Assembly (NCBI GenBank): GCA_035507575.1 | Contig: DATJNY010000006.1 | Location: 1,930-65,929, forward strand | Reading direction: 5' to 3' | Length of the DNA stretch: 64,000 nucleotides | Origin: Thermoplasmata archaeon | GTDB taxonomy: Archaea; Thermoplasmatota; Thermoplasmata; Lutacidiplasmatales; UBA184 | Shown: positions 19,067-63,003 of the stretch, piece after piece | Layout: every line of letters begins with the position of its first letter | How positions within the stretch are numbered: the stretch's first letter is position 1 | Notes under the pieces: model-generated | Told to the model about the DNA's origin: nothing | Seen by the model: the letters and a program-made list of their open reading frames with translations, nothing else | Databases searched by the model: none | Position numbers and translations under genes: made by a program

Positions 19067-19329
19067 GGCCGGGACCGAGAGTCTCAAGGCGCGGGGGTCT
19101 GCCCCGCTCCCCTTTGAACCCGGGTCGAGGGATCCACAGTCCCCCAGGATAGGCCAAGCTACCCCATCCCGGCCACGAGTCGAGGAGGCCGGCCCCGGGA
19201 GAAAAGGTTTCGCTCGATTCCCCGAGCGGAGCTCGCCCGGCAGCAGCCCCGGCGGTATCCCGGGCCCTCGTTCCGCCCGAGGAAATCGTAAAGACCCATC
19301 CCACCACGCAGGAGCGAGGGAGCAACATC

Positions 19330-59779: not shown

Positions 59780-59889
59780 CGGCCCGCGGAGTGGGGTCGC
59801 CCGCATAAGGGTTTGGTGGCCCGCGGCGCCGGCGCCCTCGCCCGGCGGACGACAACTCTTATCCTGCGGCCGCCCTCGGCGGCCGGCGT

Positions 59890-59990
59890 GGGCCGGTAGA
59901 TCAGCGGAAGATCGCTACCTTGGCAAGGTAGAGGTCGCGAGTTCAAAGGGGCGGGAGCCGGCTCCCGTCCGGAGAATCTCGCCCGGTCCA
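59890..59990 (+). tRNA. tRNA-Ala (anticodon GGC) with a 29-nt insertion in the T-loop (position 59/60)
   Basis: Hand-folded cloverleaf. The acceptor is GGGCCGG/CCGGTCC with a G3:U70 pair and A73. The D arm is GATC/GATC. The anticodon arm is CTACC-TTGGCAA-GGTAG (GGC at 59922..59924). The T stem is GCGAG/CTCGC, and its TTCAAA|T loop is split by 59948..59976. CCA is not encoded. A CTTATC box lies about 29 nt upstream. Confidence 0.75.
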
Positions 59991-60082: not shown

Positions 60083-60760
60083 GTGGAAGCCGAGATCCGT
60101 GAGAAGATGGCGGGGGAGGTCGTCCTCTCTCCCCATCCCGGCCGAACCCTTCGAAAGTGGAGGGAGGACTTCGGGATCTCCCAACGGGACCTCGCGAAGC
60201 ATCTACAGACCGTCCCCTCGGTGATCAGCGACTACGAGTCGGAGCGGCGCGTCAGCCCCGGAGCGGGCTTCATCCGACGGTACGTCGACGCGCTCATCGC
60301 CGTGGATCAGGACCACGGCGGCAAGGTCGGCCAGCGTCTCGGCATGCACGCGCATTCCGACGGCATCCTGGGGATGCGGGAGTTCGCGGTCGCGATCCCG
60401 CTGAAGTCGTTCGCCGACCGGCTCGAGGCTCGCTCGGTCGGACGCGTCGACCTGCACCGGGACATCCATGGCTTCACGATCCTCGACGCGCCGCGCGCGA
60501 TCCTATCGATCGACGCCTCGCACTTCGTGGAAGTCTACGGATGGACGACCCAGCGGGCGCTCATCTTCTCCAACGTGAAGTACGGCCGCTCCCCGATGGT
60601 CGCGATCCGCGCCCACCCGCTCAAGCCCGCCGCGGTCGTCTTCGCCAACCCGGGTCGGGTCGACGCGCTCGCGATCCGTCTCTCCGAGGTTGAGAACATC
60701 CCCCTCCTGGTCACGAGCCTCTCCGCGCCGGCCGTACTGGAACGGCTCGAGGAGCTCTAG
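60083..60760 (+). CDS. HTH (XRE-like) transcriptional regulator with a C-terminal domain (COG1395-like)
   Basis: The HTH region is ISQRDLAKHLQTVPSVISDYESERR. The GTG at 60083 lies 28 nt downstream of a TTTATA box (60053..60058). An alternative ATG is at 60107. Confidence 0.6.
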   Translation: MEAEIREKMAGEVVLSPHPGRTLRKWREDFGISQRDLAKHLQTVPSVISDYESERRVSPGAGFIRRYVDALIAVDQDHGGKVGQRLGMHAHSDGILGMREFAVAIPLKSFADRLEARSVGRVDLHRDIHGFTILDAPRAILSIDASHFVEVYGWTTQRALIFSNVKYGRSPMVAIRAHPLKPAAVVFANPGRVDALAIRLSEVENIPLLVTSLSAPAVLERLEEL

Positions 60761-60778
60761 GCATACCGAGGAACCACA

Positions 60779-61831
60779 ATGGACGCAGGAATCGTCAGCT
60801 ACGGTGCGTACGTCCCGAGATATCGGATCACGCCGGCGGAGATCGGGCGAGTCTGGGGCGCCGACGGCGAAGGAATGGGCCAGGGGCTCAACGTGCATCG
60901 CAAGAGCGTGCCCGCCCCCGACGAGGACACGATCACGATCTCGACGGAAGCGCTTCGGACCGCCCTCATCCGCGGGGCGATCGACCCGCAGCAGATCGGG
61001 GCGATCTACGTCGGCTCGGAGTCCCACCCGTACGCGGTGAAGCCGACCGCCACGGTGGTCGCGCAAGCGGTCGGGTCGACACCGAACCTCACCGCCGCCG
61101 ACTTCGAGTTCGCCTGCAAAGCCGGCACCGCCGCGATCCAGACCTGCCTCGGCCTTGTCGGGGCGGGGATGGTGAAGTACGGCGTCGCGATCGGCAGCGA
61201 CACGAGCCAGGGCGCGCCGGGCGACGCGCTCGAATACTCCGCGAGCGCCGGAGGCGCCGCGTTCGTCATCGGCCGGGACCACGTCATCGCGCGGGTCGAG
61301 CAGACTCTCTCCTACACCACGGACACGCCCGACTTCTGGCGGCGCGAGGGCCAGCGGTATCCGAGCCACAGCGGGCGCTTCACCGGCGAGCCGGCGTACT
61401 TCCGTCACGAGACCGAGTGCGCCCGCCGCATCATGGAGGTCGCGGGCACCTCGCCCAAGGACTACCGCCACGTCGTCTTCCACCAGCCGAACGGCAAGTT
61501 CCCCCAGCGCGTAGGAAAGCAGCTCGGGTTCAACGAAGCGCAGATGCGCTACGGCCTCGTCACCCCGTACATCGGCAACACCTACTCGGGGGCCGCGCTG
61601 ATCGGCCTCGCGAACGTGCTCGACCACGCCGGGCCCGGCGAGCGGATCCTCATGGTCGGCTACGGCTCCGGCGCCGGATCCGACGCCTTCGACCTCACGA
61701 CCACCGAGGAGATCGCCCGGTTCGACCGCTCCTTCGGCCGCCCCGTCCAGACGTACCTCGACAACGGCGTCGAGCTCTCGTACGGGGTCTACGCGAAGTA
61801 CCGCGGGAAGATCCACATGGGAGGCAGCTGA
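60779..61831 (+). CDS. Hydroxymethylglutaryl-CoA synthase (archaeal type)
   Basis: The catalytic contexts are intact: GSESHPY (Glu), FEFACKAGT (Cys) and [10 protein letters not shown] (His). 350 aa. Confidence 0.9.
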
Positions 61832-61833
61832 CC

Positions 61834-63003
61834 GTGCGCGACGTCGCCGTGCTCGGCGTCGGCATGACGAAGTTCGGCGAGCTGTGGGACCGCTCGTTCC
61901 GGGAGATCGGGATCGAGGCGGGGCTCCAGGCGCTCGTCGATGCCCGACTCTCTTCGGGAGACCTCGGCGCGCTCTATCTCGGCAACATGGCCTCGGGCTC
62001 GCTGATCGACCAGGAGCACATCGGCCCGCTCATCCTCGACTACGCCGGTCTCGGATCCCGGCACCTCCCCGCGGTCCGGGTCGAGGGAGGCGGCGCCTCG
62101 GGCTCGCTCGCCCTGCACGCCGGCTATCTCGCCGTCGCGAGCGGGCAATACGACTTCGTGGTGGTCGGCGGCGCGGAGAAACTCACGGACGTCCCCGACG
62201 CGACGGGCAACCAGATCACCAGCGCCGCGGCCGACCATGAGTGGGAGGTCGTCTTCGGCGCGACCCTACCGGCGCTCTGGGCGTTGATCGCCCGCCGGCA
62301 CATGCACCAGTACGGCACCACGCGCGAGCAGCTCGCCCGCGTCGCGGTGCACGCGCACGAGATGGGGTCGAAGAACCCCAACGCGCACTATCGCAACAAG
62401 GTCACCCTCGAGCAGGTGCTCGGGGCCGGCCCGGTCGCCGAGCCGCTCGGCGTGTTCGATTGCGCCCCGCTCTCCGACGGGGCGGCGGCGGTCGTGCTCG
62501 GCCCCCTGGACGTCGCGAAGGAGCACACCGACCGACCGGTGCGGATCCTCGCGAGCGAGGTCGCGTCCGACACGATGGCCGTGCAGCACCGCCGGGACGT
62601 GACCACGCTCGACTCCACCGTCATCGCCGCCCGTCGCGCCTTCGAGCGCGCGCGGCGAGCGCCGGCGGACGTCGACGTCGCGGAGATCAACGACGCCTAC
62701 ACGATCAGCGCCCTGCTCGCGCTCGAGGACCTCGGGTTCTCCGAAAAGGGCCGCGGCGGCTTCGACTTCGCGACCGGTCGATATGGGCCCGGCGGCGAGG
62801 TGGCGATCAACATGTCCGGCGGCCTGAAGGCCCAGGGACGGCCGTTCGGCGCGGTCGGCGTGGCCCAGATCGTCGAACTCGTCCGCCAGCTCCGGGGCGA
62901 GGCGAAGGACCGCCAGGTGGCGGACGCCTCGATCGGACTCGCCCACGACGTCGGGGGGACCGGCGCGACGAGCGTGGTCACCCTCCTGGAGCGGACGAAC
63001 TGA
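61834..63003 (+). CDS. Thiolase-fold protein, paralogue B, catalytic fingerprints degenerate (possible pseudoenzyme)
   Basis: The GTG at 61834 is 3 nt after the HMGCS stop, with full-length thiolase similarity. However, it reads VEGGGASGS (Gly87 in place of Cys), EINDAYTIS (in place of HDCF) and QGRPFGAVG (in place of GHP). Confidence 0.85.
   Translation: MRDVAVLGVGMTKFGELWDRSFREIGIEAGLQALVDARLSSGDLGALYLGNMASGSLIDQEHIGPLILDYAGLGSRHLPAVRVEGGGASGSLALHAGYLAVASGQYDFVVVGGAEKLTDVPDATGNQITSAAADHEWEVVFGATLPALWALIARRHMHQYGTTREQLARVAVHAHEMGSKNPNAHYRNKVTLEQVLGAGPVAEPLGVFDCAPLSDGAAAVVLGPLDVAKEHTDRPVRILASEVASDTMAVQHRRDVTTLDSTVIAARRAFERARRAPADVDVAEINDAYTISALLALEDLGFSEKGRGGFDFATGRYGPGGEVAINMSGGLKAQGRPFGAVGVAQIVELVRQLRGEAKDRQVADASIGLAHDVGGTGATSVVTLLERTN

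Follow-up and report, generated by a model that had tools for sequence, protein, structure and literature searches.

Positions 59890-59990 of a 64,000-nt stretch of DNA from a Thermoplasmata archaeon (i.e. the window) very probably constitute the single functional tRNA-Ala(GGC) gene of the genome, whose 29-nt intron lies between tRNA positions 59 and 60 in the T loop and would be spliced by an alpha'2-type splicing endonuclease (EndA) together with RtcB. This reading is based on the anatomy of the gene, on its conservation and covariation among relatives and on the presence of both enzymes in the genome.

The features of the gene are listed in Table 1. The acceptor stem (GGGCCGG/CCGGTCC, 59890-59896 and 59983-59989) includes G3:U70 and is followed by a discriminator A at 59990. 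The D arm reads GATC-AGCGGAA-GATC, the anticodon arm CTACC-TTGGCAA-GGTAG and the variable loop AGGTC. The T loop is split into TTCAAA (59942-59947) and a single T (59977) by the intervening 29 nt. A preliminary description of this locus, made from the sequence alone, had recognised a tRNA-Ala(GGC) with G3:U70 and A73 and had placed a 29-nt insert (59948-59976) at 59/60, with a junction that is ambiguous through a run of A residues. Both points were borne out by the sequence, the first also by deletion of the 29 nt, after which ARAGORN called a tRNA-Ala(ggc) and the T loop became UUCAAAU. Alanine identity was evident from G3:U70, found in 22/22 orthologues, from A73 and the GGC anticodon in the sequence and from the isotype assigned by ARAGORN. 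The spliced 72-nt product folded well below shuffled sequences (z -3.9). Neither ARAGORN with default settings nor the Rfam tRNA model at its gathering threshold returned a tRNA from the whole 64-kb window; at a loose threshold the Rfam model gave a partial match of 24.8 bits at the Ala gene, in which the T arm was skipped.

Table 1. Positions of the tRNA features in the 64,000-nt window (BHB, bulge-helix-bulge).
Feature	Positions	Strand	Basis
tRNA-Ala(GGC) gene with intron, 101 nt, no CCA encoded	59890..59990	+	sequence reading and orthologues
5' exon (tRNA positions 1-59), 58 nt; anticodon GGC at 59922-59924	59890..59947	+	near-invariant in 22 orthologues
29-nt intron at 59/60, GGGGCGGGAGCCGGCTCCCGTCCGGAGAA	59948..59976	+	sequence reading, orthologues, ARAGORN after deletion
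3' exon (positions 60-73), 14 nt: U60, 3' strand of T stem, 3' strand of acceptor stem with U70, A73	59977..59990	+	
5' strand of T stem, GCGAG (outer BHB helix h); pairs with CTCGC at 59978-59982	59937..59941	+	5 pairs, 100% paired
BHB central helix H, exon strand U54 U55 C56 A57; partner GGAG at 59971-59974	59942..59945	+	
5' bulge, A58 A59 and intron G; predicted 5' cut between 59947 and 59948	59946..59948	+	predicted from BHB geometry
Inner hairpin h', 9 bp: GGGCGGGAG, loop CCGG, CTCCCGTCC; one G-U	59949..59970	+	
3' bulge, A A and U60; predicted 3' cut between 59976 and 59977	59975..59977	+	
TATA-like promoter box CTTATCC, centre ~28-30 nt upstream of tRNA position 1	59858..59864	+	
tRNA-His(GTG) gene, encoded G-1, C73; 32-nt 59/60 intron at 19081-19112	19067-19174	-	

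The genome containing this window is 1.4 Mb in size, has a GC content of ~70% and is 84% complete. Its other Ala genes have CGC and TGC anticodons only. An intact second Ala(GGC) copy, named beforehand in the preliminary description as evidence for a disrupted gene, was not found in this 84%-complete genome. A further tRNA-Ala(ggc) with a long intron, called by ARAGORN on contig C41, was rejected as a false positive, having no Infernal match and the appearance of coding sequence. When introns of unlimited length were allowed in this 70% GC genome, ARAGORN reported tRNAs by the dozen, with introns that ranged from hundreds to thousands of bases; such calls are false positives and unfit for tRNA counts.

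Downstream of the Ala gene and on the same strand (60083-60760 and 60779-63003) lie a gene for an HTH-type protein and then HMG-CoA synthase and a thiolase-like gene, which form the trio of the archaeal mevalonate pathway. In a relative (i.e. G016), the tRNA is followed in the same order by the HTH-type gene and the beginning of the HMG-CoA synthase gene.

Conservation of the interrupted gene was examined by a DNA search of 40 relatives, among them 24 species of the same genus. The full 101-nt gene was detected in 24/24 same-genus species, although in one of them it runs off a contig end and another (G018) gave a weak partial match only. Reading of 27 species genomes from six genera of the family revealed that the gene and its intron are kept in all, and hence in five genera besides its own. 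The exons are near-invariant across 22 aligned orthologues; the introns of these orthologues (28-34 nt in the 22 tabulated) differ widely in sequence apart from the BHB features. A (T/C)TTAT box starts ~28-38 nt upstream in 27 of the 28 listed orthologous loci despite the ~70% GC content, and in most cases a purine-rich stretch comes before it. In genomes outside the family, tRNA-Ala(GGC) has no intron except in one case, where an intron lies at 37/38. These data bear on the reading of the locus as a pseudogene, i.e. a tRNA-Ala broken up by a random insertion or by the scar of a mobile element, which would account for its being uncalled by standard finders. Such a pseudogene is scarcely conceivable as the only gene for a GCC/GCU decoder, GCC making up 70 of 1320 codons (~5%) in four genes counted, and is at odds with the near-invariant exons, the G3:U70 pair of all 22 species, the conserved promoter box and the constant position of the insert across six genera.

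The exon-intron junctions of the Ala precursor exhibit the geometry of a BHB motif, with two 3-nt bulges on opposite strands and four helix positions between them, and this register fits 45/45 introns of the family. The central helix comprises the standard pairs U54-G, U55-A and C56-G, and A57 faces G (i.e. A x G). A strict central helix of four standard pairs is not present in the Ala gene and, because its fourth central position is A x G, the motif is a slightly relaxed form of hBHBh'. Both flanking helices were found, h being the 5-bp T stem and h' a covarying 9-bp intron hairpin. The predicted cuts were placed by the BHB rule, between the second and third bases of each 3-nt bulge. The preliminary description had proposed TTC/GAG pairing flanked by two 3-nt bulges, which holds, and a 5' bulge of AAA, which does not, as this bulge consists of A58, A59 and the intron G with A57 facing G in the central helix. 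Its inner hairpin of 6 bp proved to be 9 bp long and to contain one G-U pair. Its broader proposal of a BHB arrangement that serves, by prediction, as a substrate of the archaeal splicing endonuclease is supported by a geometry that is conserved and covaries across orthologues.

Free-energy folding recovered the T stem and the intron hairpin for the Ala gene and all 22 orthologues. The short central helix between the bulges was not recovered by minimum-free-energy folding of any of these sequences, which for the Ala gene prefers a UUC/GAA pairing with a 1-nt bulge; the case for the motif hence rests on comparison and not on energy. In the 22-species alignment, the pre-tRNA structure was paired in 98.3% of cells, as compared to 93.7% in shuffled controls and at most 55% in shifted registers. 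The three central pairs were 100% paired in the 22 orthologues, with alternation of U-A and U-G as the only variation, and four of the five outer hairpin pairs tested exhibited changes on both sides among the 22 species. Pairing was also counted for 45 introns from five genera. U54 was paired in 44/45, U55 in 45/45 and C56-G was found in 45/45 of these introns. Position 57 covaries with its partner, G57 facing C in 13 of 14 cases and A57 facing G in 25, U in five and C in one. The first base of the 3' bulge is A in 39/45 introns, and the last base of the intron is unrestricted.

Two other fates of the insert were weighed against these patterns. One is that EndA splices one base off (i.e. at 58/59 instead of 59/60) or in the UUC/GAA register, either of which would produce a 7-nt T loop and, because of the A run, the same mature Ala sequence. 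The A run leaves the junctions ambiguous, and the minimum-free-energy structure, with UUC paired to GAA and only U60 bulged, favours such a shift; it is nonetheless very unlikely, since the variable last intron base (C, T or G in orthologues and paralogues) would land at position 59, since the 3-4-3 geometry with 59/60 cuts fits all 45 introns and has a covarying fourth pair, and since UUC/GAA pairing is impossible in many orthologues (e.g. those with introns ending GGAAAC or GGGAAT). The other is retention of the 29 nt, giving a mature tRNA with an extra T-loop hairpin. The hairpin is stable and structurally conserved, which speaks for retention, but the resulting 36-nt T loop would destroy the T-loop/D-loop elbow needed by every elongator tRNA. 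Moreover, the conserved features are those of a splicing motif (i.e. bulge sizes, four-position spacing and G57-C covariation), while the hairpin varies freely in sequence and in length, and both EndA and RtcB are kept. Retention is, on these grounds, highly improbable, and removal of the intron at 59/60 is the reading adopted below.

We infer that 59/60 is the T-arm counterpart of the canonical 37/38 position, each separating base 6 from base 7 in a 7-nt loop on top of a 5-bp stem. The sequence UUCR, which forms the exon strand of the central helix, is near-universal in tRNA T loops, and one intron design can for this reason work in any tRNA.

The genome contains a single splicing endonuclease gene (G000:C64), encoding a 354-aa EndA with two PF01974 units and PF02778. 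Its best PDB matches were the EndA of M. kandleri, a fused protein, and the alpha'2 homodimer of A. fulgidus. By sequence, this EndA is of the two-unit alpha'2 type, without a separate alpha or beta subunit gene, and is predicted to form a dimer. Exactly one two-unit EndA gene, recognised as two adjacent matches in the same frame, was present in 39/40 family genomes drawn with a completeness filter of at least 90%. The close relatives of this EndA are found in soil and peat Thermoplasmata MAGs, including UBA184, UBA61, AcS1-67 and SubAcS13-64. EndA enzymes have a catalytic Tyr-His-Lys triad (PMC5829648), and the corresponding residues in the C-terminal unit (Y292, H300 and K331) show no variation across the class alignment and align with the catalytic residues of the M. 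jannaschii and M. kandleri enzymes. RtcB is encoded on contig C17.

A specific loop containing a lysine is inserted in the crenarchaeal and ARMAN enzymes and confers broad specificity (PMC3241643, PMC5829648). In a sequence alignment, this insertion was absent from the present EndA, YGSRVGDRLELSL aligning gap-free to A. fulgidus YGSEKGDLVTLSL; at the site of the loop, SRVGDR stands gap-free against EKGDL at the position of A. fulgidus E174-L178. The length of this site equals that in sister families without these introns. A lineage-specific change of EndA was considered and rejected, there being no insertion at the specific-loop site relative to either the sister families that lack these introns or A. 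fulgidus. A BHB intron placed in the D loop was hardly cut in vitro by the A. fulgidus alpha'2 EndA (PMC3241643). For the enzyme described here, we infer competence on 59/60 introns from necessity.

In the proposed pathway, transcription would start from the TATA-like box ~30 nt upstream and would yield a precursor with the 29-nt intron between T-loop positions 59 and 60. This precursor would fold into the 3-4-3 BHB structure, formed by the T stem, by U54-U55-C56 with the GAG at the 3' end of the intron (plus the A57-G apposition) and by the 9-bp hairpin. A dimer of the two-unit alpha'2-type EndA would then cut both bulges (i.e. between A59 and G and between A and U60). Ligation of the 58-nt and 14-nt exons by RtcB would produce a 72-nt tRNA with a UUCAAAU T loop, to which CCA would be added after splicing.

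A survey of the other tRNA genes and of the EndA type, suggested in the preliminary description, uncovered 12 further 59/60 introns beside the two-unit alpha'2-type EndA. Including the Ala gene, 13 of ~41 detectable tRNA genes in the genome contain a 59/60 intron. These 13 genes were identified in exact agreement by a stem-matching script and by a covariance model of 'T arm + intron'. A permissive version of the script produced 1754 matches, mostly spurious, and the tightened version was used. The covariance model gave 13 matches at E<=1 in the 1.4-Mb genome, all within tRNA genes and none outside. The Infernal tRNA model, applied to the whole genome, returned about ten more partial, low-scoring matches, all of which by eye have an insert after TTCRAA. 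After removal of the T-loop intron, ARAGORN gave a correct call for eleven genes (i.e. Ala-GGC, Arg-TCT, His-GTG, Gly-TCC, Ser-GGA, Ser-CGA, Ser-GCT, Gln-CTG, Glu-CTC, Asn-GTT and Asp-GTC). The remaining two were not resolved by ARAGORN because each has a second intron. One of these is Lys-TTT, for which ARAGORN reads the anticodon and misplaces the 5' end; the other, which adjoins tRNA-Gln, is probably Leu-TAG, as judged from its counterpart in G078.

The tRNA-His(GTG) gene of the same window (Table 1), whose central helix has the four pairs U-G, U-A, C-G and A-U, was missed by default finders too. A tRNA-Arg(TCT) gene with a 33-nt 59/60 intron (G000:C6:68524-68631, minus strand) lies ~6.6 kb downstream of the Ala gene and ~2.6 kb past the end of the window. 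Relatives have a second model match at a similar distance from the Ala gene (e.g. G021:C188, positions 6068 and 12747; G001:C5; G010:C1), and the Ala and Arg(TCT) pair of intron-containing genes looks syntenic. At G000:C29:68389-68614 (minus strand), tRNA-Gln(CTG) and its neighbour, probably Leu-TAG, both contain 59/60 introns, and the same adjacent pair is found in G078, a member of another genus.

The hairpin cores of the 13 introns exhibited no mutual similarity beyond that of shuffled sequences (best z of 2.1 among 78 pairs) and thus no trace of having been copied recently between genes. Recent transposition of introns in this genome was considered and found to be unsupported, core similarity not being above that of shuffles.

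The 'T arm + intron' model matched 24/24 genomes of the genus, 6-14 times each, and 144/144 genomes sampled from the family (seven genera), 3-14 times each. In the order's two other families, the model had no match at E<=1e-4. Ala-GGC and Asp-GTC are interrupted in all five genera examined. The same isoacceptors are interrupted in different genera, and most members of the smaller sets recur in the larger ones. This sharing of isoacceptor sets across genera points to introns that are old and vertically inherited, with some later gains or losses.

Further 59/60 introns were encountered outside the family. In a low-GC sister family of the same order (f2; G027, G025 and G029), Ala(GGC) is uninterrupted, and the AT-rich intron at 59/60 of tRNA-Ala(CGC), TGGTATTTTGAAATCTCAAACTACCTGAAAT, has a central helix in which all four positions are paired, A57-U included. 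In another family of the class, a tRNA gene (G033:C124) has a 59/60 intron that ends CGAGAC before the T and, upstream of it, what seems to be another intron; T-loop introns thus also occur sporadically elsewhere in the class.

Introns of this kind are already known from ARMAN-2 and the Crenarchaeota; it is their family-wide fixation beside an alpha'2 enzyme that departs from the statements of reviews. In ARMAN-2 (Ca. Micrarchaeum acidiphilum), a 59/60 intron occurs in pre-tRNA-Pro(GGG) with a strict hBHBh' motif and a second intron at 53/54, and in pre-tRNA-Cys(GCA) as a 13-nt relaxed hBH intron that is cut in vitro by epsilon2 EndA; an overlap between 59/60 and the major insertion sites in archaea that use (alpha-beta)2 enzymes has also been pointed out (PMC3239211). 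The introns described here have in common with those of ARMAN-2 their insertion point, a protein-spliced BHB-type design and a host lineage outside the Crenarchaeota with many interrupted tRNA genes. The enzymes differ, that of ARMAN-2 being a three-unit epsilon2 EndA with the specific loop and broad specificity whereas that found here is of the two-unit alpha'2 type and loop-less. The introns differ in that those described here are 29-38 nt in length, have a long GC hairpin and occupy a fixed set of ~13 isoacceptors throughout the family.

Among Crenarchaeota, and above all in Thermoproteales, introns occur at non-canonical positions (Marck & Grosjean 2003 and Sugahara et al. 2008, cited by PMC4090602 and PMC8450103), where they are cut by an (alpha-beta)2 EndA with a Crenarchaea-specific loop (PMC3241643). 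Some crenarchaeal introns fall into sequence families indicating recent transposition (Fujishima 2010, cited by PMC4090602). As in Crenarchaeota, BHB-type introns outside 37/38 affect many tRNA genes per genome and are hard for standard finders. Crenarchaeal introns are spread over many positions, are often of relaxed HBh' or hBH form and number up to three per gene; in contrast, one position dominates here, the 3-4-3 geometry is kept and the 13 introns are mutually dissimilar.

The canonical 37/38 hBHBh' introns of Euryarchaeota (A. fulgidus, H. volcanii and Thermoplasma) share the alpha'2 EndA type. They also share a 5-bp stem, loop bases 1-4 paired to the intron's 3' end and cuts that follow loop base 6 and precede loop base 7. 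The present motif differs from the canonical one in being located in the T arm, in having UUCR rather than anticodon-loop bases as the exon strand of the central helix and in the A x G fourth pair of the Ala gene. According to earlier descriptions, Korarchaeum cryptofilum stands alone among archaea in combining an alpha2-type endonuclease with non-canonical, multiple tRNA introns (PMC4033280, PMC3239211). A dimeric two-unit EndA type is likewise combined with non-canonical introns here; the korarchaeal enzyme is reported to have a specific loop, whereas no insertion is present at that place in the enzyme described here.

For Euryarchaeota, reviews state that species with alpha4 or alpha2 enzymes have introns in less than 10% of their tRNA genes and always at the canonical position (PMC4090602), and that those with alpha4 or alpha'2 endonucleases have few introns, all at 37/38 (PMC4090602, PMC4033280). 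The preliminary description had held introns outside 37/38 to be rare in most euryarchaea, which agrees with these reviews (PMC4090602) but fails for this lineage, in which they are the rule. The paper describing Lutacidiplasmatales relied on the archaeal mode of tRNAscan-SE and contains no discussion of introns (PMC9287336). In the literature searched on Lutacidiplasmatales, TMEG and Thermoplasmatota, no description of such introns was found, and a preprint on Asgard tRNA introns mentions neither the T loop nor Thermoplasmata.

These results have consequences for annotation and for the understanding of EndA specificity. Default tRNA finders miss both tRNA genes in the window and at least 13 of ~41 in the genome; a decoder of GCC, which is among the most used codons in this genome, would therefore be reported as absent, and tRNA-based counts of genome quality would be too low. 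A third of the tRNA genes of this family are interrupted at 59/60 alongside an alpha'2-type enzyme, contrary to reviews. Cleavage or non-cleavage of a T-arm BHB with an A-G apposition by a loop-less alpha'2 EndA would show whether it is position or motif that limits such enzymes. It is a plausible, though somewhat less than even, prospect that this Thermoplasmata family (144/144 genomes sampled, seven genera) keeps a fixed set of up to ~14 T-loop introns processed by an ordinary, loop-less alpha'2 EndA. If this is true, the family is an exception to the accepted coupling of endonuclease architecture with intron position. As the counterpart of 37/38 with a universal UUCR, 59/60 may be a position that any BHB-reading enzyme can service and at which any tRNA can host an intron of the same design. 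The introns may be retained because they split the segment from the T loop to the 3' end, which serves integrating elements as an attachment site.
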